In this document: positions 3,294 through 20,398 of the stretch, one piece after another
Layout: every line of letters begins with the position of its first letter
How positions within the stretch are numbered: position 1 is the stretch's first letter
Assembly (NCBI GenBank): GCA_964501085.1
Contig: CAZCRM010000001.1
Span: 1-29,232, forward strand
Length of the DNA: 29,232 nt
Reading direction: 5' to 3'
From: an uncultured Methanosarcinales archaeon
Lineage (GTDB): Archaea; Halobacteriota; Methanosarcinia; Methanosarcinales; Methanoperedenaceae
Made by a program: the position numbers and the translations under genes
Notes under the pieces: generated by a model
Database searches by the model: none
Told to the model about the DNA's origin: nothing
The model's input: only the letters and a program-made list of their open reading frames with translations

Positions 3294-4432
<1,139 letters not shown>

Positions 4433-4433
4433 A

Positions 4434-4793
4434 ATGAAGGAAATAATAGCAATAATCAGGATGAATGCAATTCAAAAAACTAAGCGCGCACTTGCTGATG
4501 CAGGCTTTCCTTCTTTGACGGTAAAGCGAGTATTTGGAAGAGGTAAGCAAAAAGGATTGCATCTCTTTCCTCCTACCAGCGTTAATCCAGAGGATAGAAA
4601 GGGTAATGGAATGAAGTATATACCAAAGAGGATGCTCACAATGGTTGTGCCTGACGAGAAGGTGGAGGAAATTATCAGGATAATCATGAAAACCAACAGA
4701 ACAGGAATGATAGGCGATGGGAAGATTTTTGTATGCCCTATCAAAGATGCCATCAGAATTAGAACAGGAGAACGAGGCGAGGAGGCGATTTGA
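4434..4793 (+). CDS. nifI2: P-II family nitrogen fixation regulator NifI2
   Basis: MKEIIAIIRMN start (ATG at 4434, not the ORF-track 4383), GRGKQKG, longer T-loop, GDGKIFV. Confidence 0.92.
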   Translation: MKEIIAIIRMNAIQKTKRALADAGFPSLTVKRVFGRGKQKGLHLFPPTSVNPEDRKGNGMKYIPKRMLTMVVPDEKVEEIIRIIMKTNRTGMIGDGKIFVCPIKDAIRIRTGERGEEAI

Positions 4794-6182
4794 ATGCCAT
4801 TTACCCTTTTAAAGTGTGATATACCTATACCAGAACGAAAGGAGCATACTTATATCAAACATTCAAGAGAAAACATTATACCAAAGTGCAATATTCAGAC
4901 CACACCAGGTGACTTCACAGAGCGAGGTTGCACGTATGCGGGTTGCATGGGTGTGGTAGGTGGTCCTGTCAAAGATGTGATTCATTTAGTGCATGGCCCA
5001 ATAGGATGCGCTTACTGGACATGGGGTGGAGGTACGAGGCAGAACTGGTCTGATAACCCAAGCTTTCATCGCAAATATTGCTTCTCCACTGATATGCAGG
5101 AGGATAACGTCATTTTCGGTGGTGAAGATAAGCTCTATAAAGCCATAATAGAGGCACACGAAGCATTCCCAGAGGCAAGAGGCGTATTCGTCTATGCAAC
5201 ATGTTCAATCGGGCTTATCGGTGATGATATAAAGGCGGTGTGCAAGCGTGCAGAGAAGGAGATAGGAATCAAGGTTGTTCCATTCAACTGCGAGGGATTT
5301 AGAGGGTGCAGTCAATCATTAGGGCATCATATCGCAAATGATACGCTTTTCGAATATGTTGTGGGCACAAAGGAGCCAGAATATACCACAGACTATGACA
5401 TGAACATCATTGGCGATTATAATATACAGGGCGATCTCTGGCTAATAAAATCACTATTTGAGCGCATGGGCATAAGAATACTTTGTACATTCACCGGAAA
5501 TGCTTCAATCGATGAAATCGCACAGGCACATCGTGCAAAACTTAACTTGATGCACTGCCAGCGTTCTACACCATATATCTGCAAACTCATGGAAAAAAAA
5601 TATGGGATTCCTTTCGTGAGAGCGTCAATGTTTGGAATAGAGCAAACCTCGAAGGCATTGAGAGATGTTGCAGCATTCTTCGGATTGGAGGAGAAAGCTG
5701 AGAAGATTATTAAAGAAGAGGTTTCAAAGGTTGTGCCTAAGATGGAAGAATATAAGAAAAAATTCAAAGGAAAGCGAGTTTTCATCTATCAGGGTGCGCC
5801 GCGCACATGGCACTGGGTAAGACTGTTTCGTGAATTAGGAATGGAAACGATAGCAGCGGCTACAACCTTCGGGCATGAGGAAGACTATGTACGTATTTGT
5901 GAACGTGTGAAGGATGGTACATTGGTCATAGACAATCCAAATGCGCTTGAACTTGAGGAGGTTTTGCTGGAATTAAAACCAGATCTGTTCATTTCCGGGC
6001 TTAAGGAAAAATATCTCTCTTACAAGCTTGGAATACCGTTCATAAACGGGCATTCTTACGAGAAGGGACCCTATGCAGTCTATTCAGGATTCCTGAACTT
6101 CGCAAGAGACATAGAGAAAGCGATGTTCGCTCCAGTATGGAAGATGATAAGGAGGGTAAGCAATGCGGAGCGTAACAATTAA
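4794..6182 (+). CDS. nifD: Nitrogenase catalytic component alpha subunit
   Basis: P-cluster Cys in RGCTYAG, HGPIGC and ATCSIGLIGDD; SQSLGHHIAN (Gln191/His195 equivalents); cofactor ligands HCQRS and NGHSY. Confidence 0.93.
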   Translation: MPFTLLKCDIPIPERKEHTYIKHSRENIIPKCNIQTTPGDFTERGCTYAGCMGVVGGPVKDVIHLVHGPIGCAYWTWGGGTRQNWSDNPSFHRKYCFSTDMQEDNVIFGGEDKLYKAIIEAHEAFPEARGVFVYATCSIGLIGDDIKAVCKRAEKEIGIKVVPFNCEGFRGCSQSLGHHIANDTLFEYVVGTKEPEYTTDYDMNIIGDYNIQGDLWLIKSLFERMGIRILCTFTGNASIDEIAQAHRAKLNLMHCQRSTPYICKLMEKKYGIPFVRASMFGIEQTSKALRDVAAFFGLEEKAEKIIKEEVSKVVPKMEEYKKKFKGKRVFIYQGAPRTWHWVRLFRELGMETIAAATTFGHEEDYVRICERVKDGTLVIDNPNALELEEVLLELKPDLFISGLKEKYLSYKLGIPFINGHSYEKGPYAVYSGFLNFARDIEKAMFAPVWKMIRRVSNAERNN

Positions 6183-7434
6183 TCCAGCAAAGATGTGCCA
6201 ACCTATAGGAGCGATATATGCTCTTTTAGGAATACATGCTTCGGTACCATTAGTTCATGGTTCTCAAGGTTGTGCTGCATATCCGATGCGAATGTTGAAT
6301 CGGCATTTCAAGGAGATGGTGCAGGTTGCGGTGAGTTCTCTTGGTGAGGATGCTGCGGTATTTGGGGGGAAGACGAATCTAATCACTTCGATAAGGAATA
6401 TAATTGCAAGAAGAAAGCCCGAGCTCATAGGTGTGATTACAACATGTCTCTCAGAGACCATAGGGGATGATATTGAAGGTATTATCAAAGAAGGTAATTT
6501 TGTGGAATCAAAGGTTATTGCTATCCACACGCCAAGCTATGTTGGTTCACATGTTACTGGGTATGACAACGCATTGAAGGCGCTCATAGGTCTTTCAGAG
6601 AAATCAGATGCTTCAAATGGTAAGCTGAATATCATTCCAGGCATGATTAACCCAGGGGATATCTATGAGGTGAAGCATATGCTTGATTTGATGGACATCT
6701 CCTATACCATTATAAGTGATGTTTCAGAGACGCTTGAGGTGCCTCTTATCCTGCCAAAACTACCTTTTCCTGAAGGTGGAACCTCTGTGAAGGAAATTAT
6801 GGAATGTGGTAATGCATGCGGTGTGATTGCACTGTGCGAGCATGCGGGTGGTTCTGCAGCCACGCTACTTGAGAAAAAATATGAGCTTGAGTATGATACC
6901 ATCTGCCCGATTGGGGTATCGAATACTGACCGATTCTTAGAGAGCATCACTGATATAATGGATGCAAAGATACCATATTCGCTTGAAAAGGAGCGTGGAA
7001 GGCTCATAGATGCGATGGTAGATGTGCATCAAACCACATACGGAAAACGTGCTGCGATATTCGCAGACCCAGATGTGGCAATTGCACTTGCAGAGTTCAT
7101 ATCTGAGTTAGGAATGGAAGTTGCCGTTATCTCAAGTAGCACAGCGAGCAGAAAGTTCGCACAGAAAGCAAAATCATTCACCAATAAGATTCTGAATGGA
7201 AGCGACTTATATGAATTGCATAATGCAGTGAGAAGTAATGAAGTGGATGTTCTGCTTGGGAATACTAAATGCAAGTCGATTGCGAAAGATGAAGGAATTG
7301 CGTTTGTGAGGTGCGGATTCCCCGTCTATGACAGGGTTGGATATCATAGGTATGGTATCATGGGATATCGTGGCGGGATATATCTCACGGACATGATAAC
7401 AAATGCAATACTGGAAATGGAAGACAAGAGGTAA
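6163..7434 (+). CDS. nifK: Nitrogenase catalytic component beta subunit
   Basis: NPAKMCQPIGA, HGSQGC, TTCLSETIGDD and TPSY (P-cluster Cys x3 plus Ser); overlaps nifD by 20 nt; 423 aa. Confidence 0.88.
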   Translation: MRSVTINPAKMCQPIGAIYALLGIHASVPLVHGSQGCAAYPMRMLNRHFKEMVQVAVSSLGEDAAVFGGKTNLITSIRNIIARRKPELIGVITTCLSETIGDDIEGIIKEGNFVESKVIAIHTPSYVGSHVTGYDNALKALIGLSEKSDASNGKLNIIPGMINPGDIYEVKHMLDLMDISYTIISDVSETLEVPLILPKLPFPEGGTSVKEIMECGNACGVIALCEHAGGSAATLLEKKYELEYDTICPIGVSNTDRFLESITDIMDAKIPYSLEKERGRLIDAMVDVHQTTYGKRAAIFADPDVAIALAEFISELGMEVAVISSSTASRKFAQKAKSFTNKILNGSDLYELHNAVRSNEVDVLLGNTKCKSIAKDEGIAFVRCGFPVYDRVGYHRYGIMGYRGGIYLTDMITNAILEMEDKR

Positions 7435-7436
7435 AT

Positions 7437-7799
7437 TCATTTATAATCTGAAATCTCCACAATGTCTTTTAGCTTCATCATGGGGTAGTTTTTCTTATCA
7501 TCATATGAAAGTTCACCCTCTACTAAGATGTTCTTATAAAGAAGCTTTAGTGTTACATGAAGCATTCTTCCTTCCAGTTCACAGTAGCCAAAGATATTCT
7601 TCGTATCCTCTACCATCTTTCTGTCAATAGTTACACTAATACTCTTAACATAAGGTTGAAGACCTATACTTTTCTCTATGGCTTTCTCCAGTTCTTCTAT
7701 GGTATCCACGCTTACTGGCGTTCCTACAAACTGGTGATACAGTGCACCAAGCTTGATTCCTGCCTCAAATACAGCGATATCCCTTTCATTGATTCTCAT
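7437..7799 (-). CDS. mptD: Archaeal dihydroneopterin aldolase (DUF381/MptD family)
   Basis: FEAGIKLGALYHQFVGTPV signature and C-terminal YPMM motif. Confidence 0.85.
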   Translation of the reverse strand: MRINERDIAVFEAGIKLGALYHQFVGTPVSVDTIEELEKAIEKSIGLQPYVKSISVTIDRKMVEDTKNIFGYCELEGRMLHVTLKLLYKNILVEGELSYDDKKNYPMMKLKDIVEISDYK

Positions 7800-8463
7800 A
7801 CAACTTTCTTACCACAGGATATAAGATATAGAATGCTATTAAAACGAGCAGGGTTGAAGATATCATCTTGACAACATTTACGTATATAAAGAATGCTACA
7901 ATATCAAGCACAAGAAGAAACACCAGAGGTGTGAGAAACACAGGGTTGCTTGGTTTGGGATAATGTACTGTGCTCACCATAAGCAAAGATAAAAGAACAA
8001 GAATTAAACTAAACACCTGCTCAGAATATGGGAAATCCTTTATAAGAAGAAATAACGCAACGATAAACCCACTGGCTGTTATGGGTACACCAGTAAACCC
8101 CTGATTATTCGTAGTTATGTTGAAACGTGCAAGTCTGAGTACACCACATATCAGAAAAAAACCTGATAAAAGTATTGCCAAGTATCCAAGGTCTCTAAGA
8201 AAAATAAACGCTGCTGATGCAGGTGCTACACCAAATGATATGGTATCGGCAAGTGAGTCAAGGTTTGCACCCAGTGCACCATATCCTCTATACCTTGCTA
8301 TTGCACCATCAGCACCATCTGCCATCACCGCTCCAAGAATCAGGATAAGAGCTTCATCATATCTACCTTGAGCAAGCATGAGTATCGATACAAACCCCAG
8401 AAGAGCATTAATCAGGGTAATGATATCTGCAGGCTTTATCAGCTTGATGATATTCTCTTCCAT
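7786..8463 (-). CDS. pssA: CDP-archaeol/diacylglycerol--serine O-phosphatidyltransferase (archaetidylserine synthase)
   Basis: CDP-alcohol phosphotransferase motif DGADGAIAR...GANLDSLADTISFG, LRLARFN, multiple TM helices. Confidence 0.92.
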   Translation of the reverse strand: MEENIIKLIKPADIITLINALLGFVSILMLAQGRYDEALILILGAVMADGADGAIARYRGYGALGANLDSLADTISFGVAPASAAFIFLRDLGYLAILLSGFFLICGVLRLARFNITTNNQGFTGVPITASGFIVALFLLIKDFPYSEQVFSLILVLLSLLMVSTVHYPKPSNPVFLTPLVFLLVLDIVAFFIYVNVVKMISSTLLVLIAFYILYPVVRKLYENQ

Positions 8464-9077
8464 TCTTCCACTTTCTTACTTCTGATAGCGATGATTGTCT
8501 CTCCTGCTTTTACCTTATCCCCTTTCTTTATTATTATTCTGTAATCTTCTGGAACAACCACATCCACTCTTGAACCAAAGCGTATCATTCCTATTCGTTC
8601 TCCCCTTCTGACATATGTCCCTTCGCTGATATATGAAACAATCCGCCTTGTCAAAGCCCCTGCGATCTGAGTTAGTTCAAGAATTCCATAATCAGATTGC
8701 ATTACGATATGATTTCGTTCATTCACATTAGAATTCTTATTAAAGGCAGGAATGTAACCTCCTGACCTGTAATCAATACGTTTGACTTTTCCAGCCAAAG
8801 GAGCACGATTAACATGAACGTTATGAAGATTCATGAAGATACTGAGGCTTTTCTCACCTATAGCAATAACCTTGCCATCAGCAGGTGAGACCATATCATC
8901 CTCCTCACCTGAGGGAGTGCGTTCAGGATCGCGAAAGAAGATTAAAAAGAAAATCGTTGTAATTATGCTTGGAATAAACAAAAAAAGTAATACAGAATTC
9001 AGTTTTGAAAGATAACCTGTGATAACAGTCAGGAGCAACCCACTTCCTACCCATGAGAAAGAACCTTTAGCCAGCAT
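8439..9077 (-). CDS. psd: Phosphatidylserine/archaetidylserine decarboxylase proenzyme
   Basis: FFRDPER, SPADG, SIFMNLHNVHVNRAP and the RFGSRVD self-cleavage motif. Confidence 0.92.
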   Translation of the reverse strand: MLAKGSFSWVGSGLLLTVITGYLSKLNSVLLFLFIPSIITTIFFLIFFRDPERTPSGEEDDMVSPADGKVIAIGEKSLSIFMNLHNVHVNRAPLAGKVKRIDYRSGGYIPAFNKNSNVNERNHIVMQSDYGILELTQIAGALTRRIVSYISEGTYVRRGERIGMIRFGSRVDVVVPEDYRIIIKKGDKVKAGETIIAIRSKKVEEWKRISSS

Positions 9078-9867
9078 TAAATATACCCCTAATCACCTTC
9101 AGAATACCATCAATCATGTCTATGATTTCAGGAAGTATCTTCAGAACTACATGAGAGATTATGAACAGTGCTATAAGCGAGCCTGTTTTTGCGATGATGG
9201 TATGTGCTATATAAAAACTTGTTTCTGGGTTTCCAAACCATAACATACCATAAGCATTAACCACAAAAATATTTCTTATGAGATTTAGCACATATATAAC
9301 AGGTACAGATACGAGAAAAGCGGATGCGAGGCGTTTAAAGGGTGCTCTTACGCTCGCGATGATTCCTGTGAAGAGTGCAATGCTCTCAATAGCTGTGCAT
9401 GCGAGGATGATCTCAACCCTGTAGCCATTGACTGCAACTATATTCCAGTCCATTCGTGTGATTGTTATTCCAAGAAGCGAGGCAAGCCAGATGGTTTGAT
9501 TTACAACTGTTGAGATAAGCCACTTATGCATTTCCTGAATTTCAGAGAACAAGAAATATGTAAGTCCGCCCACAGCAGCTGCGGTGGTTGCCATACAAAG
9601 AGAGGCTATGATATTTTGATTAAGTACATTTTTATCCTGAAATACCAGAACATATCCTACTATAAAACCTACAAAGGAAGCAATTAACGTAAGCGCCACA
9701 TTAACATAATCACCGATATTGTAATAATATGGTGTAAGGCTTGCCAAATGTACTGAAAAGAGGCCCCAGCCTGCACCTGCAGTTGTGAGTTTCCATTTAT
9801 ATCGCTTAGGTATAAGCGAGGCTATCATCAGCAAACCTAACGCCAACCAGAGCACTATTGCAGTCAT
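9067..9867 (-). CDS. artA: Archaeosortase A
   Basis: Polytopic membrane protein with EIILACTAIESIALF (catalytic Cys), NLIRN (Arg) and SFYIAH; next to psd/pssA; PGF-CTERM proteins nearby. Confidence 0.88.
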   Translation of the reverse strand: MTAIVLWLALGLLMIASLIPKRYKWKLTTAGAGWGLFSVHLASLTPYYYNIGDYVNVALTLIASFVGFIVGYVLVFQDKNVLNQNIIASLCMATTAAAVGGLTYFLFSEIQEMHKWLISTVVNQTIWLASLLGITITRMDWNIVAVNGYRVEIILACTAIESIALFTGIIASVRAPFKRLASAFLVSVPVIYVLNLIRNIFVVNAYGMLWFGNPETSFYIAHTIIAKTGSLIALFIISHVVLKILPEIIDMIDGILKVIRGIFNAG

Positions 9868-10137: not shown

Positions 10138-11298
10138 TTACGTTTGCTCCTCCATATCCTTCCAGGGTGGGAGGATATGAGTTACAACTTTAAGGATAAT
10201 GAAAGGAAGTATTATGAGTACTATTGCAGCCAGAACTCCTTCACGATTGAAGAATTCAGGCACATATGTAAGCGTGCCACTCAGACTCTTGGAGATTTCC
10301 TGACCACCTATAACTACGTTCCATCTCATGGAAAACACGCCTATGAGTACAAGTATAGAAGCGATGGACGTCATTATGACCTTCAGAGACTCACGGTTCT
10401 TCATTATGATCACAAGCAAAAGAAGAATGAAAGGTAAAAGTGCGCCCATCGTTAATTGTACACCATAAAAAGTAAAGGCAATCTTCTCAGAAAGCAATCG
10501 ATTAATGATCTCGATTTCTTCAAGAGATTCGTATTTTGCACTTAAAAGCTCTAATAGCTCTAATGTCACATCCAGTATAAGAAAAACCCAGAGATAAAGG
10601 GAAAGAGAATAAATGGTATTATGGTTGAGGGAATGCTTTCTTAGTTTCATAGTTATAATATAGAGCAAAATAAGGAGTGCAATCCCTGACACAACAGCAG
10701 ACAGCAGGAATATGATGGGCATTAGTGGAGAGGACCACCATGGATTTGCCTTAATCCCTCCAAAGATGAAACCCACATATCCATGCAAAAATGAGGCAGC
10801 AGGTATACCTATGATGGCAAGCTTCTTGGCGAGTTTTTCATCCTCTTCTAGTGCTTTCTCAGAGATATCATATGAAAAAAGGGCAAGTGCTGAATACAGT
10901 ACCTCTTTAAGTCCCTTTGAGTTCAAGGCGTTATTTACAATATCCTTTCTGAAAGAAAGCCATATCTCCAGCACTAACACAATCAAATAGAATGTGTAGA
11001 TATACCCAAAACCCGACATGGCAGAGGTGAAATGGGGCGTGAACATGATTTCAATGCCTCTTTCAGAATGTCCAAGATGGGCAAGAAGAGGCATAGGTGC
11101 AACTAATAAAAACGAGAACGCAGTAAGAAGGGCGAATCTTGCCACAGGTTGAATTTCCTTTTTTCCAAAAACATGGTAGAGCGAGGATACTATAAATGCA
11201 CCTGCAACAAGTCCTGTGATGTAAGGATAGAGAACAATCAGTATGCTCCACTGAATTTCAACCTCGTTTGGATACACAAAACCCGAGACCAAGTCCAT
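10138..11298 (-). CDS. NrfD/PsrC family quinol-interacting integral membrane subunit
   Basis: WSILIVLYPYITGLVAGA, HLGHSER, TSAMS, LHGYVGFIF, WWSSP and RWNVVIGGQ motifs; many TM helices. Confidence 0.9.
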   Translation of the reverse strand: MDLVSGFVYPNEVEIQWSILIVLYPYITGLVAGAFIVSSLYHVFGKKEIQPVARFALLTAFSFLLVAPMPLLAHLGHSERGIEIMFTPHFTSAMSGFGYIYTFYLIVLVLEIWLSFRKDIVNNALNSKGLKEVLYSALALFSYDISEKALEEDEKLAKKLAIIGIPAASFLHGYVGFIFGGIKANPWWSSPLMPIIFLLSAVVSGIALLILLYIITMKLRKHSLNHNTIYSLSLYLWVFLILDVTLELLELLSAKYESLEEIEIINRLLSEKIAFTFYGVQLTMGALLPFILLLLVIIMKNRESLKVIMTSIASILVLIGVFSMRWNVVIGGQEISKSLSGTLTYVPEFFNREGVLAAIVLIILPFIILKVVTHILPPWKDMEEQT

Positions 11299-12059
11299 TA
11301 TCTCACCACCATATCCAGCCCGACATAGTACACTTTTGGTCTCGTCCCAAGGTCGGGTTTGAGAACATTTATCCTCTTTTCAGCCAGAATCTTGTTTACA
11401 GCGCTATCTTCATCGTTAAGGTCTCCGAATATCCTTGCTCCCACCGGACATGCCTGAACACATGCAGGTAAGAGCCCTTTTGTGATTCTGTGATAACACC
11501 ATGTACATTTATCCGCTGTCCTCTTCTCGCTATTGAAGTATCGTGCACCATACGGACATGCCTGAATGCAATATCTACACCCAATACAGTAATCATAATC
11601 CACAAGAACGACTCCATCTTTTGTCATATATGTAGCCCCTACAGGACATACCTGTACGCAGGGAGGATTATCACAGTGATTGCACAGCTTGGGAACATAG
11701 AAGGCTTTTTTAATATATTCAGAGGGAATATCATCAACAAACCCCTTGATACCCCCATCAGGAGAGTCTATCTTCACCTCCCCGTTATTTAGTATTCTGT
11801 ACCTTTCAATCCATGTCCTATACACTGGTTCATCGAAAGGCACGTGGTTTTCAAGCTTGCAGGCATTGGCACATCTCCCGCACCCAATGCATTTTGTGGT
11901 ATCTACAGCAAAGCCCCAGAAATGCTTGTTCCAGTCATACTGCGGGGAAGCACTGCCCTCTCTGGCAAGAGCTTCAATAACAACACCTGTAGCTGCCATT
12001 ATAACAATCTTACATCCAAGTTTGGTGAAATCACGTCTTGATAGCATGTTTTGCTTCAT
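11298..12059 (-). CDS. NrfC/DmsB-like 4x[4Fe-4S] protein with Tat signal
   Basis: SRRDFTKL twin-arginine signal; CIGCGRC, CNHCDNPPC, CIGCRYC and CTWC...CVQACP; ATG at 12059 overlaps the upstream TGA. Confidence 0.92.
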   Translation of the reverse strand: MKQNMLSRRDFTKLGCKIVIMAATGVVIEALAREGSASPQYDWNKHFWGFAVDTTKCIGCGRCANACKLENHVPFDEPVYRTWIERYRILNNGEVKIDSPDGGIKGFVDDIPSEYIKKAFYVPKLCNHCDNPPCVQVCPVGATYMTKDGVVLVDYDYCIGCRYCIQACPYGARYFNSEKRTADKCTWCYHRITKGLLPACVQACPVGARIFGDLNDEDSAVNKILAEKRINVLKPDLGTRPKVYYVGLDMVVR

Positions 12060-12505
12060 ACGAACCACGGTTTATGAGGGTTATGACAATATGCACATTT
12101 CAGATTCTCTCCATGGGTAAGAGGGTCTATCTGCGGAAAATCCTTGGGTCTAGCAGCACGCTTATAGTGGCATAAACCACAGAAATCTCTTGATTCATTG
12201 GCTGGAGGAGGCATTACTCTCACATTCTTTACATGATTTGCTGAAGGACCATGACAGGTCTCGCAATTAACGGTTTTATGTCTTGATTCAGACCATACCT
12301 TGTAGAGTGTGGAGTGGCAGTCCTCCTCTCCACAACTTTTTGAGCCAGCGTACCCTACTGGAAAATTCCTGTTTTCAATAACAGAGTTTGCACGATACCA
12401 TCCATACCTTCCAAAGGATTCTGGAATCACAAGGCTTCTTACGAGTATAAAGACTATTATCAACATCACCAGTAACGTGAATGCCTTTTTCAAATGTGGT
12501 TGCAT
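12056..12505 (-). CDS. Membrane-anchored tetraheme c-type cytochrome
   Basis: N-terminal hydrophobic helix; CETCH, CGLCH, CAYCH and atypical CGEEDCH. Confidence 0.85.
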   Translation of the reverse strand: MQPHLKKAFTLLVMLIIVFILVRSLVIPESFGRYGWYRANSVIENRNFPVGYAGSKSCGEEDCHSTLYKVWSESRHKTVNCETCHGPSANHVKNVRVMPPPANESRDFCGLCHYKRAARPKDFPQIDPLTHGENLKCAYCHNPHKPWFV

Positions 12506-12543
12506 GTTATCCCTGCATCAGCGTTTTTATCATCATATATCCC

Positions 12544-13476
12544 CTACTTTTTTCTTAGATATATTATGAGAAGAGCTATTATGCTTGTAATACCAATAAA
12601 TCCAGGAGTCTCAGGAACAGTTTTGGTTGGAGTAGGGGATGGCTTCACAAGTTCTTGAGCTTTGAGTGCATCCTTGTTTGCTGAGTCAACCTCCTCTTCA
12701 AAGCGGGTGAGATTGAACTCGTGCCACATGGGCGGGAGTTTGTTAATGGTATCTAATGCATCATCCACAAGCCTTTTTGCCTCTACCACATCTGTTCCAT
12801 TCTTTTCAGCCCAGAATATATCCTTCCTTGCCATATCAATGTTGAATTTAACTTTCTTTACTTTCTCAAGCAGATATTCTGCCTTGAGAGGCACATCATA
12901 GGGCGCCACCTTCTTATACACTGAATGGCAGTTTCCACAGAAGTTCCTGAATTCGACTGGATTAAGCACTTTGAAGGTATGCGGAGCATGGCATGTGGTA
13001 CATGTTGGAGCGAGTTTCAAAGCTTCAAGCTTCTTATAATGCTTACTATTTTCAAAATTGTTCAGTTCCTTAGGATGACATTTTCCACAGGTTTTGGGAA
13101 CATTGGTGTAATACACTGGGCTTTCAGGGTCTGTATAGTTCTTGATACCTGCATGTGCTTTTTCTTTAATATTAGAAGAGGGGTCACCTCCATGACACTT
13201 ATCACAGGTGACATCCTTGAGGGCATGCACTGACTCACTCCACTGCTCATAGTTTGCTGTCGCAAGCTGTCGTATCCTGTCCTCATGGCACTCAAGAGAA
13301 CAGCTCACTCCTCTCTCAAGATGCCGAATCCTTATCGCATTGAACTGCTTTTGAACCTCTATGAAAGGAGATAATGTTTTATGGCAATCTATGCATGAAT
13401 TCTTAGCAGCATCTGCATTGGATACCAAACTACCCATCAACATTATTAAAACTATAACAAACAACCTATGCTTCAT
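12544..13476 (-). CDS. Hexaheme c-type cytochrome with PGF-CTERM anchor (paralog 1)
   Basis: Signal peptide; CIDCH, CSLECH, CDKCH, CGKCH, CTTCH, CGNCH; C-terminus ETPGFIGITSIIALLIIYLRKK. Confidence 0.9.
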   Translation of the reverse strand: MKHRLFVIVLIMLMGSLVSNADAAKNSCIDCHKTLSPFIEVQKQFNAIRIRHLERGVSCSLECHEDRIRQLATANYEQWSESVHALKDVTCDKCHGGDPSSNIKEKAHAGIKNYTDPESPVYYTNVPKTCGKCHPKELNNFENSKHYKKLEALKLAPTCTTCHAPHTFKVLNPVEFRNFCGNCHSVYKKVAPYDVPLKAEYLLEKVKKVKFNIDMARKDIFWAEKNGTDVVEAKRLVDDALDTINKLPPMWHEFNLTRFEEEVDSANKDALKAQELVKPSPTPTKTVPETPGFIGITSIIALLIIYLRKK

Positions 13477-13505
13477 TTTTTCAGACCTGCTACGTTTTAA
13501 TGTAT

Positions 13506-13555
13506 AGTTTCCGTTTTTCCGTTAGTCTCCGTTTTTCTGAGTCTCCGTTTTTCTG
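13506..13555. repeat. 16-nt direct repeats upstream of the left-arm cytochrome
   Basis: AGTCTCCGTTTTTCTG exact at 13524-13539 and 13540-13555; 14/16 copy AGTTTCCGTTTTTCCG at 13506-13521. Confidence 0.85.
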
Positions 13556-13571
13556 TCGGAGTTATGCTGCT

Positions 13572-13660
13572 CATTATAAATAGTTTTTGTTTTTTCTTAG
13601 AAAGATAAATTTAAATATATTGCAGACCTGAAGACAAATAAATCTTCATTATTTATAATG
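13572..13660. promoter_or_regulatory. Back-to-back divergent promoters with identical TATA 11-mers
   Basis: TATTTATAATG on - strand at 13572-13582 and on + strand at 13650-13660. Confidence 0.6.
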
Positions 13661-13668
13661 GTGTTGTG

Positions 13669-13719
13669 AGATGTCACGGAAAAACGGTGCATGGAGAAGT
13701 AAGATGTCATGGAAAAACG
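13669..13719 (+). repeat. 18-nt direct repeat with 33-nt period at the start of the right-arm operon
   Basis: AGATGTCACGGAAAAACG (13669-13686) and AGATGTCATGGAAAAACG (13702-13719). Confidence 0.8.
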
Positions 13720-14658
13720 TATCAAAGTTGTGGATTGTTCTGATCCTGTTGATTTTAACTTATTGTAGAATTGCAGCCTGTGATAGCAGCAGTACCAAAT
13801 CTGCCCAACAACTCATGTGCTGATTGTCATCGCAGGTTGATCTTCACCTCAGAAGCACAACGAAAGTTCATTGAAATACGCCTCAAGCATATTGAAAGTG
13901 GAATCTCATGCTCCATAGTTTGTCATGAGGATAAGCTCAATAAAACCACTGCAAGCACCTATGCATTATGGTCAATATCCACACATGCTCTTTTTGGAGT
14001 TACATGTGAAAAATGTCATGGGGGTAATCCAACCATAACTTCCAAGGAAGGAGCTCACGCAGGTCTTTCCAATAAAAGTATAGCACGTAGTAGTACTCCT
14101 GAGATGTGTGGTAGATGTCATAAAGCTCAACTTGTTGAGTTCAGGAGTTCAAAACATTACAAAATATTAGAGTCTGGTGGTGAAAAAGCTCTTGCCCCTG
14201 CATGCATAACCTGCCATCAGGCACACAGCGTGCGTGTATTGACTGCCTCCGAGATAGAGGATTTCTGTAGTAACTGTCATAATAATATAACAGGTATTCA
14301 TCCAGATGTACCAAGAAAAGCTGAAAAGGCATTATCTTTGGTTAGTGACCTAGAAGCTGAGATTTCAAAGGCAAGAAGTGCTGTAATCTCAGCTAAAGCA
14401 TCAGGAAAGGATGTGACACACGCTCAGGAGGAGCTAGAATCTGCAAGAGCAGTCCTAAAAGAGGTACCTTCAGTCTGGCATAGATTCAACCTAACATATT
14501 TTGAAACCGAGGTTCAGAATGGTATTACCAAAGCAGAACAAGCTAAGGAAGAAGCAGGAGCAGCTTCACAGGTTACACCTGCTCAAACGCAATCTCCAGG
14601 GTTTGAGTTAATATTGTTTATATCAGCTATGCTCTTATACATAATAAGAAGGCGTTAA
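13704..14658 (+). CDS. Hexaheme c-type cytochrome with PGF-CTERM anchor (paralog 2); signal peptide offset by a frameshift near 13757
   Basis: Body (13771-14658) has CADCH, CSIVCH, CEKCH, CGRCH, CITCH, CSNCH and QSPGFELILFISAMLLYIIRRR; signal-like MSWKNVSKLWIVLILLIL starts at ATG 13704 in another frame. Confidence 0.82.
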
Positions 14659-14659
14659 A

Positions 14660-15583
14660 ATGATCAGGATTGTTGCGTGCTCACTACTACTATTTGTTAT
14701 TCTTGCATCCTATAGTGGAGTAGCAGATAACTCATGCATAAACTGTCATGCCAATCTCACAGCTTTCAATGAGACTGAAAAGTTATTCAATAAAATAAGA
14801 CTTAAACATCTTGAAAGAAATGTTCCATGCTCTCTTGAATGCCATGCCAGTACACTTAAAAAGTTTGCTAAGAGTAACTATGAGCAATGGACAAAATCAA
14901 AGCATGCCTTATTTGATGTTACCTGTGATAAATGTCATGGAGGAAATGCTTCCTCTGCTGTCAAGGAGGAAGCACATAAAGGTGTTCTTCGATCCTCTAA
15001 CCCAAATAGCACAATATTTTACAGGAACGTGCCTGAAACCTGTGGGAAATGTCATAAAGATGAACTAAAGGAGTTCAAAAGCTCCAAGCACTATCAGAAA
15101 CTCAAAGCTCTTGAACAGGCACCAACATGTGATACCTGTCATCAACCCCATAAATTCAAGATTCTGAATATCAGTGAGTTCCATAGCTTATGCAGTAACT
15201 GCCACAACCCAGAGATGAGAATCGCTCCTGCAGATGTGCCAGATAAGGCTATTTCAGCCCTTGAAAATGCTGAATCCTTAAAGAACGAAATCATAACAGC
15301 AGAGAAGGTTATAAAGCAGGCAAAAGAGCAGGGGAAAGATGTTTCTATCGCTCAAAAAGAGCTTGAAAAAGCAGAATCCACTCTGGATACTCTTCCAGTA
15401 CTGTGGCATGGTTTTGATCTCACAGCCTTTGAAGAGGTGGTTAACAAAGGAATACAAGCTGCTCAGAATGCACAACAGGATGCAGGTAAACCAGTTTCTA
15501 CTCCTTCAAGTCCATCACTTGGAGTGGTTTTAGCCCTATCTGGAATTGTTTTAGTATATCTTAAAAAACGATGGAGAGGGTAG
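14660..15583 (+). CDS. Hexaheme c-type cytochrome with PGF-CTERM-like (PSL) anchor (paralog 3)
   Basis: Signal peptide; CINCH, CSLECH, CDKCH, CGKCH, CDTCH, CSNCH; C-terminus SSPSLGVVLALSGIVLVYLKKRWRG. Confidence 0.9.
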   Translation: MIRIVACSLLLFVILASYSGVADNSCINCHANLTAFNETEKLFNKIRLKHLERNVPCSLECHASTLKKFAKSNYEQWTKSKHALFDVTCDKCHGGNASSAVKEEAHKGVLRSSNPNSTIFYRNVPETCGKCHKDELKEFKSSKHYQKLKALEQAPTCDTCHQPHKFKILNISEFHSLCSNCHNPEMRIAPADVPDKAISALENAESLKNEIITAEKVIKQAKEQGKDVSIAQKELEKAESTLDTLPVLWHGFDLTAFEEVVNKGIQAAQNAQQDAGKPVSTPSSPSLGVVLALSGIVLVYLKKRWRG

Positions 15584-15586
15584 GTT

Positions 15587-15916
15587 ATGCACAAAAAACG
15601 TGTGATGTTAGTATTTACCATGATTCTGCTGTTTACTTCCATTGCTTCTGCCAAGATTGAATATGCGGTAAAGGAAAGCCGTAACTGTCCCTATTGTCAT
15701 TCTTCAAATGGACCACCCCAGCTTAATGAGAGGGGGGCATACTATGCAATGCATAATCATTCCTTAGAAGGATTTGTACCTTCTCCAAAAGTAACCCCTA
15801 CTCCACAACCTACTGAGAAGAAGATTGGCGTGCATATGAATACATGGGATGTTGGCTTAATTGTATTCTCCTTTCTTTTGCTGATGCTTGGACTTATTTA
15901 TATTATACGATTATGA
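15587..15916 (+). CDS. Small monoheme c-type cytochrome with C-terminal TM anchor
   Basis: Signal peptide ending ASA; CPYCH; Pro/Thr linker; C-terminal hydrophobic helix. Confidence 0.78.
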   Translation: MHKKRVMLVFTMILLFTSIASAKIEYAVKESRNCPYCHSSNGPPQLNERGAYYAMHNHSLEGFVPSPKVTPTPQPTEKKIGVHMNTWDVGLIVFSFLLLMLGLIYIIRL

Positions 15917-15925
15917 GGTGATACC

Positions 15926-16201
15926 ATGCACATCGAGAAAATTGAATATGGGCCAGAAAAAACAGGCTTATGGTCTCAGGTGGCTTTTATTCTTATTATA
16001 TTATTAAGCTTAATAGCAACTGTAATAGCCTTTACAATACTCTGGAGACTTATGATAGTCGAACCTTCCAAAGCATCTTCACAAGCCTTTATAGAAGGGA
16101 TAGGAAAGCTGTTGTCTTCTTTAGTGTTCATCTTAGGAGCCATTATTTACTTATATGTTAAAGGACTGCTTCAAGACGAGTATGTTACTACAGTAGAGTG
16201 A
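15926..16201 (+). CDS. Small two-TM membrane protein, hypothetical
   Basis: GAGGTGA ribosome-binding site; two hydrophobic segments; inside the cytochrome/Rieske operon. Confidence 0.7.
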   Translation: MHIEKIEYGPEKTGLWSQVAFILIILLSLIATVIAFTILWRLMIVEPSKASSQAFIEGIGKLLSSLVFILGAIIYLYVKGLLQDEYVTTVE

Positions 16202-16205
16202 TAGC

Positions 16206-16709
16206 ATGAGCAACAAAAACGATAGGATTACCATTACCTTTACAAGGAGAAGGCTTACAGAGATACTTATGGGTTTGGTAGCACTTTTCTTTGCATCAGG
16301 TGCTGTAGCTACTGTTCTGAAATATCTATGGCCAAAAACTACAGGTAAAGGTCAAGTTAGTGAGGTGAGAATTGCATCTGTGGATGAAATACAGACTGGT
16401 AGTGCTAAGATGTTTAATTTCAATGGTAAGGCAGCCATACTTTTAAAAACTCCGGGTGGGTTTAGAGCGTATGGTGCGGTATGCACTCATTTAGGATGCA
16501 TTGTAAAATGGAAAATAGATGAGAATATTATTCTGTGTCCATGCCACTTAGGCAAGTTTGATCCCAACACAGGAAAGGTGGTTGCTGGTCCACCACCTTC
16601 ACGTTTACCCACTATAATTATTAAAGTAAAAGAGGGCAGTGTGTATGCCCTCAAATGGAAAGACCCTGCCTATGTGAAAACTCTTTCTATGTATGCAGGA
16701 GCTGCATGA
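16206..16709 (+). CDS. petC: Rieske [2Fe-2S] subunit of a Rieske/cytochrome b complex
   Basis: TRRR Tat-like N-terminus plus TM helix; CTHLGC and CPCH boxes; GPPP. Confidence 0.92.
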   Translation: MSNKNDRITITFTRRRLTEILMGLVALFFASGAVATVLKYLWPKTTGKGQVSEVRIASVDEIQTGSAKMFNFNGKAAILLKTPGGFRAYGAVCTHLGCIVKWKIDENIILCPCHLGKFDPNTGKVVAGPPPSRLPTIIIKVKEGSVYALKWKDPAYVKTLSMYAGAA

Positions 16710-16718
16710 GGTGATGAT

Positions 16719-17375
16719 ATGAATGAAAAAATCTACAAATGGTTTGATGAGAGATTCAAACTGAATGAGTTACTTCCATCCATAACCAAACATCCAGCTC
16801 CTGAGAAGGTTATTTCCAATCCATTATACTGTCTTGGCGGGACAGCATTTCTTTGCTTCCTTATTCTTGTAATTACTGGAATGTTCCTTGCAATGTACTA
16901 CAAACCCACCCCAGATGAAGCTTATAAAAGTGTGGAGCATATAATGACAGAAGTGCCTATGGGGAGCTTGATACGAAGTCTGCATCACTGGACTGCCAAT
17001 ACCATGATTGCAGCAGTGATGCTACACATGATAAGAGTATTCTTTATGGGTGCGTATAAAAAACCCAGAGAGCTGAACTGGGTGGTAGGTGTACTTCTAT
17101 TTCTCACTGCCACCACCTTTGGATTTTCAGGATATTTATTACCATGGGATCAGCTTGCATACTGGGCAACGAAGATAGGCACTGGCATCGCTGGCTCAAT
17201 ACCTTTTGTAGGAAAATATATCTCCCTTATACTGGTTGGTGGCTCTGATATCAGTGCAGAGACGTTATCAAGGTTCTATGCGTTACATGTACTCATACTC
17301 CCTGCTATTATCATTACCCTTCTTGCAATACACTTTACTATGGTGAGGATTCAGGGAATCTCTGGGAGGCTTTAA
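16719..17375 (+). CDS. petB: Cytochrome b6-like N-terminal cytochrome b subunit
   Basis: YCLGG, four heme-b His (SLHHW...MLH; ALHV...AIH), GYLLPWDQLAYWA, C-terminal QGISGRL; 218 aa split form. Confidence 0.94.
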   Translation: MNEKIYKWFDERFKLNELLPSITKHPAPEKVISNPLYCLGGTAFLCFLILVITGMFLAMYYKPTPDEAYKSVEHIMTEVPMGSLIRSLHHWTANTMIAAVMLHMIRVFFMGAYKKPRELNWVVGVLLFLTATTFGFSGYLLPWDQLAYWATKIGTGIAGSIPFVGKYISLILVGGSDISAETLSRFYALHVLILPAIIITLLAIHFTMVRIQGISGRL

Positions 17376-17377
17376 AC

Positions 17378-17848
17378 ATGGCGATAATCGAGGTTGAGAA
17401 GGTAAAGGATGTAGAAAAGGAAGAGAAACCACAGGAACCCATAAGAGTCAGAGGATTGCCGTTTTTCCCGCATTTTGTACTGCGTGAAGTTGTGGTGATG
17501 TGTATTGTTACAGGAGTACTAATACTGCTGGCATCAATATACCCAGCAAGTCTGCTTGAACCTGCTGACCCGTTCAATACACCCTCACCTATATACCCAG
17601 AGTGGTATTTTCTTTATGTATTTGGTTTTCTGAAGTTCTGGACCTTTGATATAGGACCTATACCTGCAAAATATATTGGAATAACTGTGCCCATGGTGCT
17701 CTTTTACCTTGTTCTAATACTTGTACCCTTCATTGATAGAAATCCTCATACCGAAATCAGAAAGAGAAAGACTGCAATAACTATTGGCGTAATTGTTCTT
17801 CTGTTAATACTGTATTTCACATACTATAGCATAGTTCATCATGGATAA
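17378..17848 (+). CDS. petD: Subunit IV (C-terminal cytochrome b half)
   Basis: PFFPHF, PADPFNTP and IYPEWYFL Qo-site motif; three TM helices. Confidence 0.92.
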   Translation: MAIIEVEKVKDVEKEEKPQEPIRVRGLPFFPHFVLREVVVMCIVTGVLILLASIYPASLLEPADPFNTPSPIYPEWYFLYVFGFLKFWTFDIGPIPAKYIGITVPMVLFYLVLILVPFIDRNPHTEIRKRKTAITIGVIVLLLILYFTYYSIVHHG

Positions 17849-18020
17849 CAATATTGAAGCATTTTCAAAAGTCATAGGGTTAGTTATCGCTACCATAGGT
17901 GTGGATAAGATATTCAGTGGTAACTATGTTATAGCTATCGTTCTTTTTTTCTTAGGAGGGGTAATAAGCATTATACCATTACTGATTGACCACAGCTTAA
18001 TAACCAAGTGCAAGAATTGA
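17841..18020 (+). CDS. Putative small two-TM membrane protein (59 aa; not in ORF track)
   Basis: MDNNIEAFSKVIGLVIATIGVDKIFSGNYVIAIVLFFLGGVISIIPLLIDHSLITKCKN*; its ATG overlaps the subunit IV stop by 8 nt. Confidence 0.65.
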   Translation: MDNNIEAFSKVIGLVIATIGVDKIFSGNYVIAIVLFFLGGVISIIPLLIDHSLITKCKN

Positions 18021-18032
18021 TCTACAAAAAAA

Positions 18033-19157
18033 TTAAAGTTGTTTAAGCATTATGGACATTATGCTTGAGGTGTTTGATTCTGGAGAAAATGCAAACATCT
18101 CACCTGATAGCTCCTTATTAAATCTATCTGTAATCTCCTTGAATATCATTTTATAAGCCTTACAATGAGGGTCAACACCTTTTATTTCACCTTGGGTAGG
18201 TACTATTGCATTGTAGGGACATCCACCTCTGCAGAAGTTGATGTATGCACATTCGCTACATTCCTGATCTACGTATTCCTTGAACTCATGCATGAGCTTC
18301 CATGCATAGGATTGGGCAAGCTCTTGCTTGGTCGGGTGGTCATATACATTGCCCATAACATACTTTGGCATGTCTACAAAGCGATAGCATGGGTAGATGT
18401 TTCCTTTAGGTCCTATTGCAAAGGTATCACCCATGCAATCTACAAAGGTGCATATCGTACCTCTACCGGTAAAAACAGATTTACAAAGGTGATCAAGATT
18501 CATTATTTCAATCCTACCCATGTTCTGCAGGTATTTATCCAAAAGATAAATCAGAAGCTTACCATATTCCTCTGGATCAAGTGCCCATTTTTCAGGTTTA
18601 TCATCACGTAAAGAAGGTAATGCTGGATGTAATTTAAGGGTTAGCCCGTTCTCTAAGAAGAAATTGAAAATATCCTCCTTAAATCTAATAGAGTAGGAGG
18701 TGATGGTGCATATAAAACTCACCTTGAGACCATGAGCTTTTGCAATCTCATACCCTCGCATGGTTTTTTCGTAGTATCCTTCTCCTCTCTGCAAATCATT
18801 AAGCTCCTTTGGTCCATCTAAGCTTGAACCTATTGGTATATCATACTCAGCCAGAATCTGTGCCAGTTCAGGGGTGATTCTCCAGAGGTTAGTTTGCATG
18901 GCAAACGCTGGCTTCATGTGGCTAAGGCACTGAGATAGTAATGGCAAAGCCTTACGATAAAAGTCTATACCTGCTAAAAGAGGTTCTCCACCATGAAAGG
19001 TGAAAGTCACTGGGTCATCTCGGAAATTCTTGAGCCATTTAATCATTTCTTTGATGGTTTCAAGGCTCATTACAGGAGCGTTTTTCTCAGAACTCCAGCA
19101 ATAACTGCAATTAGATGTGCATCTTAACGTAGGGATTATCATTACATGAAAAGCCAT
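18033..19157 (-). CDS. Radical SAM/SPASM enzyme, putative peptide/protein-modifying (resembles TIGR04083 family)
   Basis: FHVMIIPTLRCTSNCSYC (CX3CX2C), FHGGEPLL, SPASM Cys set C..GNIYPCYRF..CSECAYINFCRGGCP..DPHC. Confidence 0.85.
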   Translation of the reverse strand: MAFHVMIIPTLRCTSNCSYCWSSEKNAPVMSLETIKEMIKWLKNFRDDPVTFTFHGGEPLLAGIDFYRKALPLLSQCLSHMKPAFAMQTNLWRITPELAQILAEYDIPIGSSLDGPKELNDLQRGEGYYEKTMRGYEIAKAHGLKVSFICTITSYSIRFKEDIFNFFLENGLTLKLHPALPSLRDDKPEKWALDPEEYGKLLIYLLDKYLQNMGRIEIMNLDHLCKSVFTGRGTICTFVDCMGDTFAIGPKGNIYPCYRFVDMPKYVMGNVYDHPTKQELAQSYAWKLMHEFKEYVDQECSECAYINFCRGGCPYNAIVPTQGEIKGVDPHCKAYKMIFKEITDRFNKELSGEMFAFSPESNTSSIMSIMLKQL

Positions 19158-19247
19158 ACTGCTCTTAAGCTTCTTAACGATATTAATAGTTTTCTACTTA
19201 CTTGATGCTCTTTTTATGATTAAAAAGATTTTTATTCTGATATTAGC

Positions 19248-20336
19248 TCATACATTAATAAAATGCTCCAGTCTTTTTATAGCTCTGTACTTCTCTTTTC
19301 TATCCAGCTTTGCGCTCTCTAGGGCGTCACGAAGCACTTGAATGGAATTATCATAGGTTTCTTTATCCACAGGATAAGGATAACCATCCTTACCCCCATG
19401 AGCGAAGCTGTACTTTACAGGGTCACGCCAGCTTGGAGGAGTTCCAAACACTATATCCGAGATCAGGGCAAGAGCCTTTATTTTTTTAGGTCCCATTCCT
19501 GAAAGCGATATGAGTTCCTCATAGGTTTCAGGCTGAAGTTCATATGCCCTTCTGAGCACCTCCATACCATGCTTGCCTATATCTATATCAAGAACAGGGT
19601 GGTGGGAAGGAAGAGCAAAACTGCTTTCAAAATCCTCCAGCACTCTCTGTTTTGACAGATACTTTTTCAGATGATCTGGGTTATCCTTTATCAGGTCAAG
19701 ACATACCTCTCTTGCTGCTTCGCTTGCTCTTGCAGTCATGTCAAGAACCTTAGCTTCTTTTCTATCACAGCAGATACCTTCATGTGGCTCTTCTGTGAAG
19801 CTGTGTATGTCTGAAAGCCAGTGGTATCTCCTTGCATAGGTGTTGTTCATGCCCTGCTGTACCACAGCCCACTCACCCTTTTCTGTGAAGAAAAAACAGT
19901 GATGGTATAGCTGATAACCATCCTGAATGCAGGAGTTATCCACCTTTGCTGTCATTCTGCTTGAATACTTCAACCTTTCAATTCTATCAGAGGAAAGCGA
20001 AAGAATCTCGCCCATAGCTTCAATTTCAGCAGGTGTTTTTCTTGACGTGCTTCCTTTTCCACCAGCAACCGCTACACCATGCTCTTCTGGAGAAAGTGCA
20101 ACCTTGAGAGCTCCGCATGTGGTTGTTGTAGTGCCTGAGGAATGCCAGTCAAACCCTAACACACAGGAGAATGCCTGAAACCAGTGAGGGTTGGAGATGC
20201 GCCTGAGAAACTCCTTTACCCCATACTCATAGATGATTACCTCAGCAATACCACCTGCAAGCTTCACCATTCTCTCGAACAACCATCTTGGCGTTTTCCC
20301 GTCATGAAGGGGTAGATTCACACTGCCTGTGCGCAT
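19248..20336 (-). CDS. DUF763-like conserved protein
   Basis: LPLHDGKTPRWLFERM, DWHSSGTTT, KVDNSCIQDGYQLYHH and AHGGKDGYPYPV motifs; ATG at 20336 preferred. Confidence 0.8.
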   Translation of the reverse strand: MRTGSVNLPLHDGKTPRWLFERMVKLAGGIAEVIIYEYGVKEFLRRISNPHWFQAFSCVLGFDWHSSGTTTTTCGALKVALSPEEHGVAVAGGKGSTSRKTPAEIEAMGEILSLSSDRIERLKYSSRMTAKVDNSCIQDGYQLYHHCFFFTEKGEWAVVQQGMNNTYARRYHWLSDIHSFTEEPHEGICCDRKEAKVLDMTARASEAAREVCLDLIKDNPDHLKKYLSKQRVLEDFESSFALPSHHPVLDIDIGKHGMEVLRRAYELQPETYEELISLSGMGPKKIKALALISDIVFGTPPSWRDPVKYSFAHGGKDGYPYPVDKETYDNSIQVLRDALESAKLDRKEKYRAIKRLEHFINV

Positions 20337-20398
20337 AAGATAAACTTTAACCACTTGGGTGTTAAAGTTATTTAAAGCACGGTGAAAGTAAGTTTAAT

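Follow-up and report, generated by a model that had tools for sequence, protein, structure and literature searches.

Two known types of putative menaquinol:cytochrome c oxidoreductase operon lie head to head, with a candidate common leader repeat, in a new genus of Methanoperedenaceae

How are electrons moved from the membrane to the outside in the Methanoperedenaceae, archaea whose methane oxidation uses nitrate, metals or electrodes as acceptors? For this family, the step that takes electrons out of the quinol pool and onto cytochromes facing outward is, to our knowledge, documented by genomes and transcripts only. The present analysis concerns a locus that may serve this step, at positions 10138-18020 of a 29,232-nucleotide (nt) stretch of DNA (the window; contig CAZCRM010000001.1 of GenBank assembly GCA_964501085.1). 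Its 12 open reading frames (ORFs) form two divergent strings: on the minus strand, hexahaem-1, a tetrahaem cytochrome, an NrfC-like iron-sulphur protein and NrfD (the left arm); on the plus strand, hexahaem-2, hexahaem-3, a monohaem cytochrome, a protein with two transmembrane (TM) segments, a Rieske protein, cytochrome b6, subunit IV and a small TM protein (the right arm). Both arms are tightly packed, with spacings of -13 to +38 nt between ORFs. The window is contig C1 of a metagenome bin (G000; 1.56 Mb in 222 contigs, 93% complete) which is the sole member of its own genus, in the family of Ca. Methanoperedens nitroreducens; the locus is also contained in Logan contigs of two microbial-mat runs (X1 and X2).

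Both arms have close published counterparts. An eight-gene Rieske/cytochrome b cluster, MPEBLZ_00816-00823, was described with all genes expressed at similar levels and two of its cytochromes counted as pentahaems, and was proposed to feed a terminal reductase in the nitrate-reducing M. nitroreducens (Arshad 2015, PMC4683180). A bc1/b6f operon with two six-haem multihaem cytochromes (MHCs), and an operon of NrfD, a 4Fe-4S protein and three- and six-haem MHCs, were later reported to be highly expressed in Mn(IV)-dependent methane oxidation (Leu 2020 ISME J, PMC7082337), and a companion analysis distinguished five groups of menaquinone (MK):cytochrome c oxidoreductases, two of which are the types of the present arms (Leu 2020 mBio, PMC7327174). 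That several quinol modules confer flexibility toward acceptors of different potential is an idea already contained in both papers. In the Archaeoglobi, the corresponding locus of JdFR-42 was drawn as "three contiguous operons" (Boyd 2019).

Compared with these systems, the right arm corresponds in all eight genes, and in gene order, to the Arshad cluster, the "group 1" bc1/b6f operon of Leu, at 60-84% identity to M. nitroreducens and BLZ2. It differs in that an invariant CX3CH motif, missed when only CxxCH is counted, makes both cytochromes hexahaems, in that the operon abuts an NrfCD operon head to head, and in that hexahaem-2 carries a polymorphic frameshift. The left arm matches the NrfD-like operon of Leu in all four genes and their order; its small cytochrome, however, most likely binds four haems rather than three, because the remaining site is a CX4CH motif here and the Archaeoglobi orthologues have four canonical CxxCH motifs. 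In Ca. Polytropus marinifundus (Archaeoglobi JdFR-42), a bc1-like Rieske/cytochrome b set with a hexahaem and a monohaem cytochrome is followed by tetrahaem-NrfC-NrfD, but there the genes are co-directional, one hexahaem stands against three here, and a second NrfCD-type module lies beside the cluster. An earlier note on this DNA, made from the letters alone, had ranked the locus as the best candidate for an undescribed system; this does not hold, the right arm having been published in 2015 and both arms, as MK:cytochrome c oxidoreductases, in 2020. The note was right about the general role, delivery of quinol-pool electrons to c-type cytochromes that face outward, which is the published interpretation of both arms; since the idea of multiplicity is published as well, its functional proposal is the published one. 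The gene content that it gave for both arms is borne out by ORFs and by Pfam, NCBIfam and PDB matches, and all 12 ORFs lie where it placed them, with two corrections: hexahaem-2 is frameshifted in the window, and the last "2-TM" ORF encodes 59 residues with one or two hydrophobic segments. The locus is a further case of known module types, from a new genus and with a head-to-head layout that is rare and probably ancestral.

Drawing on gene identities, cofactor motifs, orthology, synteny and motif statistics, we consider it likely that the locus comprises two operons for menaquinol:cytochrome c oxidoreductases, distinct from each other and both previously described, which stand head to head and are jointly regulated via AAAAACGG. 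In the spacer between the arms, two TATA-like TATTTATAATG elements of 11 nt face outward as mirror images with 100% complementarity (13572-13582 on the minus strand, 13650-13660 on the plus strand). They are accompanied by three 16-nt repeats on the side of the hexahaem-1 gene, hex1 (13506-13555), and by two 29-nt repeats on that of hex2 (13658-13719), all of which contain a GAAAAACG core on the transcribed strand. This 8-mer is not enriched genome-wide (68 copies, about 60 expected), and in 1.56 Mb it forms no more than three clusters, found in the leaders of hex1, of hex2 and of a fourth hexahaem gene, hex4, on contig C154. AAAAACGG has 38 genomic copies, counting both strands, of which eight fall into the 170-nt leader windows of four operons, against 0.03 expected. 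These operons, headed by hex1, hex2, hex4 and a cytochrome gene on contig C159, are all four quinol-module operons of the genome, and the sites outside the window are at C154:207-227 and C159:3030-3047. A scan of the intergenic region with Rfam gave no match. We read the AAAAACGG repeat as a candidate common regulatory element of quinol:cytochrome c operons, acting on DNA or in the 5' leader; as it is promoter-proximal and common to four quinol modules, the two arms and the other two modules are probably controlled together, and the common motif argues for coordinate rather than reciprocal control of the arms. Co-regulation of the arms, already claimed in the earlier note, gains real support from the mirror TATA-like elements and from the repeats in both arms and two other operons. 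Among relatives, six of seven paired AAAAACGG sites in genus g3 precede hexahaem genes, and 10 of 20 sampled sites in Methanoperedens precede multihaem cytochrome genes; in the latter genus the exact GAAAAACG is mostly missing upstream of hex1 and hex2, and the signal is carried only by looser AAAAACGG pairing, and by other cytochrome genes.

From these data we infer the direction of electron flow, the partners, the energy yield and the regulation of the two operons. In the left arm, the NrfD-type membrane subunit would oxidise menaquinol and hand the electrons to the four-cluster NrfC-like protein, exported by twin-arginine translocation (TAT), from which they would proceed via the anchored tetrahaem cytochrome to the lipid-anchored hexahaem-1, without a Q cycle. 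In the right arm, menaquinol would be oxidised at the Qo site of a b6-type complex formed by b6 and the PEWY-bearing subunit IV; one electron would pass via the Rieske protein and the anchored monohaem cytochrome to hexahaems 2 and 3, the other would cycle through the b haems, and this Q cycle would release more protons per electron. Both arms would terminate in paralogues of one old hexahaem family at the outer face of the membrane, and the outward hexahaems would in turn deliver to larger extracellular cytochromes or minerals.

Several points weigh against this reading. The direction of electron flow in NrfD-type modules is unreadable from sequence, Qrc running in reverse; no RNA sequencing runs with the locus were found; and as the genome is incomplete, the assembly may lack a terminal reductase that the organism has. 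Across the family, paired AAAAACGG sites number 76 against 40 in a reversed control, which is an excess of about twofold only, and seven of the ten multihaem sites in Methanoperedens belong to one orthologous six-haem family and hence are non-independent. Finally, because the window allele of hexahaem-2 is frameshifted, the right arm may be one cytochrome short in some cells. In this allele the signal peptide that begins at ATG 13704 runs into a stop, and the mature domain lies in another frame, where it lacks a signal peptide and can be reached only from TTG 13771. An allele one base shorter at about 13757 encodes an intact 317-residue precursor like the orthologues, which have intact signal peptides; it makes up 19.2 of 24.2 word depth in run X1, and run X2 has only the frameshifted allele. 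As an observation apart, the N-termini of the hexahaem-2 signal peptides (loci L002-L041; 13704-13725 in the window) keep K-N-(V/A/G)-S with the codons AAA AAC G.., so that in many species the first hexahaem-2 codons include a copy of the AAAAACG motif, possibly owing to a nucleotide-level constraint.

Taken separately, each arm is fully syntenic with Ca. M. nitroreducens, BLZ2 and 33 other family loci. The eight-gene order of the right arm is identical in these loci (L008-L042, including M. nitroreducens ANME2D, L014, and BLZ2, L035) wherever the contig extends far enough, with hex2 cut off in two of them and the small final gene undetected in three; the order of the left arm recurs in relatives at 64-83% identity, the genomes G001, G031 and G050 and metagenome contigs giving 64-82%. 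The divergent architecture, for which the earlier note had suggested a synteny search, is not conserved in the family. Orthologues of NrfD (74-82% identity) and of b6 are present in 45 and 40, respectively, of 52 other family genomes, and in all 39 species genomes that hold both arms these lie on different contigs, with a head-to-head layout in 0/39; near-closed assemblies such as G001 (10 contigs) and G031 (6 contigs) are among them. The flanks retrieved around b6 in 35 family loci, up to 10 kb long, contain no left-arm gene. The layout does recur in two ENA metagenome scaffolds of one other lineage, L120 and L121, which are 88-94% identical to each other and in which hex3<-hex2 face away from hex1->tetrahaem->NrfC->NrfD. 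L120 has about 84% DNA identity to the genus-g3 genome G050, where the arms are apart and the homology ends exactly inside the intergenic region, and an error-rich JGI contig (L135) may be a third head-to-head case. Because two distinct lineages have the same layout, a head-to-head pair that is ancestral in the family and was split repeatedly is probably the more economical reading.

Outside the family, the closest b6 relatives found are from two Archaeoglobi metagenome-assembled genomes (MAGs), with 65-66% identity for b6 and 52% for NrfD, in which tetrahaem-NrfC-NrfD directly follow the right-arm genes in the same direction. Among 96 Archaeoglobi genomes, a b6 orthologue is present in three, always 2-2.4 kb from an NrfD orthologue, and at least 11 more have the NrfCD module by itself, paired with 8- or 12-haem cytochromes. 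Three loci, two of Planctomycetota and one of Verrucomicrobia (L059, L062, L076), also join both modules in one string. The NrfCD module is thus autonomous, but the two modules have repeatedly moved or remained together. This leaves room for a tentative extension of the preferred reading, which we regard as possible: NrfCD and Rieske/b6 would be an old co-inherited pair, with the head-to-head arrangement probably ancestral, and together with the NapC/NrfH- and FdnI-type modules they would form one AAAAACGG regulon, with the repeats placed between TATA box and start codon and a regulator that sets the whole electron-export capacity. That the two modules are one functional and evolutionary unit, a two-gear menaquinol oxidase or even a supercomplex, with an adjacency that is ancestral and meaningful, we think unlikely. 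The joint clusters of Archaeoglobi, Planctomycetota and Verrucomicrobia would suit such a unit, as would the recurrence of the layout in two Methanoperedenaceae lineages, the split of G050 exactly inside the intergenic region and the leader motif common to both arms; however, the arms are unlinked in every one of the 39 species genomes, at least 11 Archaeoglobi genomes have NrfCD without a b6 module, five family genomes have NrfD and no b6 match, and the motif also precedes two further, unrelated quinol modules.

Where would the electrons of two such separate operons go? As the earlier note had stated, profile scans find no molybdopterin or other catalytic subunit in the window, and the 10 kb to each side of the locus contain no reductase gene. 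In the whole 93%-complete genome no respiratory molybdoenzyme was found, PF00384 matching only FwdB (625 bits) and a weak NuoG-like ORF, and 8- to 12-haem cytochromes are encoded; an extracellular electron sink is therefore more likely than nitrate. The same findings speak against the alternative that the modules feed a soluble or membrane terminal reductase for nitrate, nitrite, arsenate or selenate encoded elsewhere, instead of extracellular transfer. We give it little chance, even though it was proposed for the Rieske/cytochrome b cluster (Arshad 2015, PMC4683180) and although NCBIfam places b6 and subunit IV near ExtP and ExtQ of a Geobacter selenite/tellurite-reduction operon.

Slightly less probable still is that one arm, most plausibly NrfCD, is reversed and acts as a Qrc-like cytochrome c:menaquinone reductase, either for electron uptake or in a redox loop with Rieske/b6. 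Known NrfD-family modules include both directions, Qrc and HybB reducing quinone and Psr, Nrf and alternative complex III (ACIII) oxidising quinol. The NrfC-like protein scores on the NCBIfam models of QrcC (119 bits) and HybA (120 bits), as it does on those of TtrB (229 bits) and DsrO (207 bits). Against a reversed arm stand the lack of a QrcB-like or hydrogenase partner and of any sign of an electron donor at the locus, and the high expression of the orthologous operon in Mn(IV) methane oxidation, that is, in electron export (PMC7082337). That the head-to-head junction is an assembly chimera, as the fragmentation of the bin into 222 contigs and unitig bubbles at the junction might suggest, is very improbable, given that a single unitig joins hexahaem-1 coding sequence to 219 nt of the spacer, the hexahaem-2 TATA element among them, that overlapping unitigs reach into hexahaem-2, that the second run has the same sequence, that a one-base indel explains the bubbles, and that the independent assemblies L120 and L121 have the same layout.

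In the preferred reading of two separate operons, both arms converge on the hexahaem family. When 28 of its members, including one from Archaeoglobi, are aligned, five CxxCH motifs, one CX3CH motif and six further histidines are invariant, the last of these distal histidines forming the WH motif of a C-terminal helical domain; this set matches what six bis-histidine haems would need. In a maximum-likelihood tree the family falls into four paralogue clades with 100% support each, with hexahaem-1 in an orthologue clade supported at 100/100. Because each clade has one copy from this genome at or near its base, three from the window and hex4 from C154, the duplications are older than the radiation of the family. 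A PDB sequence search gave only a weak local NrfA-like match, and an AlphaFold2 model of hexahaem-1 from the 28 sequences has a mean predicted local distance difference test (pLDDT) score of 68, with most of the haem domain below 60 and only the C-terminal helices 197-277 confident. At their C-termini, hexahaem-1 has PGF, a hydrophobic stretch and RKK, hexahaem-2 has PGF, a hydrophobic stretch and RRR, and in hexahaem-3 PSLG replaces PGF. The hexahaems are probably lipid-anchored via archaeosortase A, although in the NCBIfam scan no PGF-CTERM model matched them, and PF18204 did so only faintly, for an orthologue. At 7786-9867, archaeosortase A is directly downstream of NrfD and is followed by genes for phosphatidylserine decarboxylase and CDP-alcohol phosphatidyltransferase; PGF-CTERM anchoring of the nearby hexahaems would call for these as lipid-donor genes.

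In all, quinol modules of four kinds are encoded in the genome, each headed by a six-haem cytochrome of about 310 residues. On C154, hex4 precedes a membrane cytochrome of the NrfH/NapC type with 12 CxxCH motifs (L005, 259-2298); in G001, G050 and several metagenome contigs such a pair of a further hexahaem and a NapC/NrfH-like cytochrome follows NrfD, and in the present genome it sits on this separate contig. On C159, an unrelated 304-residue cytochrome with six CxxCH motifs is followed by an FdnI-like b-type cytochrome (L116, 1354-3004).

As for the individual subunits, the closest PDB match of the NrfC-like protein is Thermus PsrB (2vpw_B, E 1e-49), and a PDB sequence search with NrfD found no solved relative at E 1e-3. 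In the right arm, the Rieske protein carries the CxH...CxxH cluster ligands and a TAT export signal. Cytochrome b is split into a four-helix b6 and a separate PEWY subunit IV, as in b6-type complexes, and b6 aligns over its full length with Chlamydomonas b6 (1q90_B, E 1e-65), all four haem-ligand histidines matching. Its LYCLGG aligns with FYCIGG of 1q90_B, so that the cysteine to which haem ci is bound in b6f (Cys35) is kept. The monohaem cytochrome, conserved at 54-77% identity in 35 family loci and at 50% in Archaeoglobi, is likely to take the place of cytochrome c1/f; in one Methanoperedenaceae MAG (L022) three successive monohaem matches look like a tandem triplication inside the right arm.

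Beyond the Archaea, the nearest concept is found in Geobacter, where the inner-membrane quinol oxidoreductases ExtMNOPQS/Cbc6, the CbcSTU-type NrfD modules and the ImcH/CbcL/CbcBA set, whose use is known to depend on potential, are likewise parallel quinol:multihaem modules for extracellular electron transfer. On the ExtP model, b6 scores 279 bits, under its cut-off of 290. Geobacter belongs to another domain of life, however; the present system has no outer-membrane conduit, and its cytochromes carry putative archaeal PGF-type anchors. The left arm shares with ACIII, Qrc, DsrMKJOP and NrfABCD a core of an NrfD-family protein, a periplasmic four-cluster iron-sulphur protein and a membrane-anchored multihaem cytochrome, but it is without the molybdopterin-like domain of ActB/QrcB, a second NrfD-like subunit, DsrMK or NrfA. 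More specifically, an E. coli-type NrfABCD was rejected for want of NrfA, the hexahaems matching NrfA models only locally (19-23 bits, far under the cut-offs) and having no CxxCK; ACIII, as the iron-sulphur protein has 256 residues with Fer4 domains only and there is one NrfD gene; and DsrMKJOP, as the DsrO model was barely passed (207 against 200), NrfD reaches 43 bits against a DsrP cut-off of 350, and the window contains no DsrMK. The NrfD cluster reported as induced on electrodes (Ouboter 2024) is another one and has 7-haem cytochromes.

Around the locus, the flanks hold nifHI1I2DK, archaeosortase A with the lipid-head-group genes, a radical-SAM/SPASM protein, DUF763 and an aminotransferase. 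The nifH-I1-I2-D-K operon, at 3297-7434, is 2.7 kb off the left arm and is preceded by NAD-salvage and ADP-ribosylglycohydrolase genes. The radical-SAM/SPASM gene and DUF763, at 18033-20354, lie 3' of the right arm, and DUF763 (67-76% identity) is downstream of the right arm in four relatives too (L016, L028, L032, L042); gene content is partly conserved among relatives in the right flank, and not in the left. The features of the locus are listed in Table 1.

Table 1. Features of the two arms, their control region and the neighbouring archaeosortase gene (positions in the window)
Feature	Position	Strand	Characteristics
Archaeosortase A	9067..9867	-	TIGR04125, 233.8 bits (cut-off 75); neighbour of NrfD, outside both operons
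NrfD-family integral membrane quinol-interacting subunit	10138..11298	-	386 residues, about 9-10 hydrophobic segments, without haem motif; PF03916, 156 bits
NrfC/PsrB/TtrB/DsrO-like 4x[4Fe-4S] protein	11298..12068	-	256 residues, twin-arginine signal SRRDFT; Fer4_11, 98 bits
Membrane-anchored tetrahaem cytochrome c	12056..12505	-	149 residues, N-terminal TM helix, 3 CxxCH + CGEEDCH (CX4CH)
Hexahaem-1	12544..13476	-	Signal peptide, 5 CxxCH + CX3CH, C-terminal helical domain with invariant WH, PGF-type C-terminal anchor
Divergent control region	13477..13703	.	227-nt spacer between the arms
Hexahaem-2	13704..14658	+	Frameshifted near 13757 in the window sequence
Hexahaem-3	14660..15583	+	Signal peptide, 5 CxxCH + CX3CH, C-terminal hydrophobic anchor
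Monohaem cytochrome c	15587..15916	+	CPYCH, signal peptide, C-terminal TM anchor
Conserved small 2-TM subunit	15926..16201	+	63-70% identity in all family loci
Rieske [2Fe-2S] protein	16206..16709	+	TRRRLT twin-arginine motif, TM anchor, CTHLGC...CPCH; PF00355, 50 bits; PetC-like, 66 bits
Cytochrome b6	16719..17375	+	PF00033, 189 bits; NCBIfam cytochrome b6, 286 bits
Subunit IV (PetD-like)	17378..17848	+	PEWY Qo-site motif (PEWYF in translation); PF00032, 50 bits
59-residue hydrophobic protein, last operon gene	17841..18020	+	40-56% identity in 32 of 35 family loci

The locus adds no new machine. What is new are the AAAAACGG leader repeats in all four quinol-module operons, the frameshift polymorphism of hexahaem-2 and the finding of no respiratory molybdoenzyme in the genome. 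Its compact 8-kb extent, with both module types behind a single 227-nt control region, makes it suitable for heterologous expression and promoter studies. Worth following are the common AAAAACGG leader repeat and the linkage of the modules across phyla: as a candidate common cis-element, the repeat could point to a regulator of electron export, and modules that travel jointly across phyla bear on the lateral spread of electron-export capacity.

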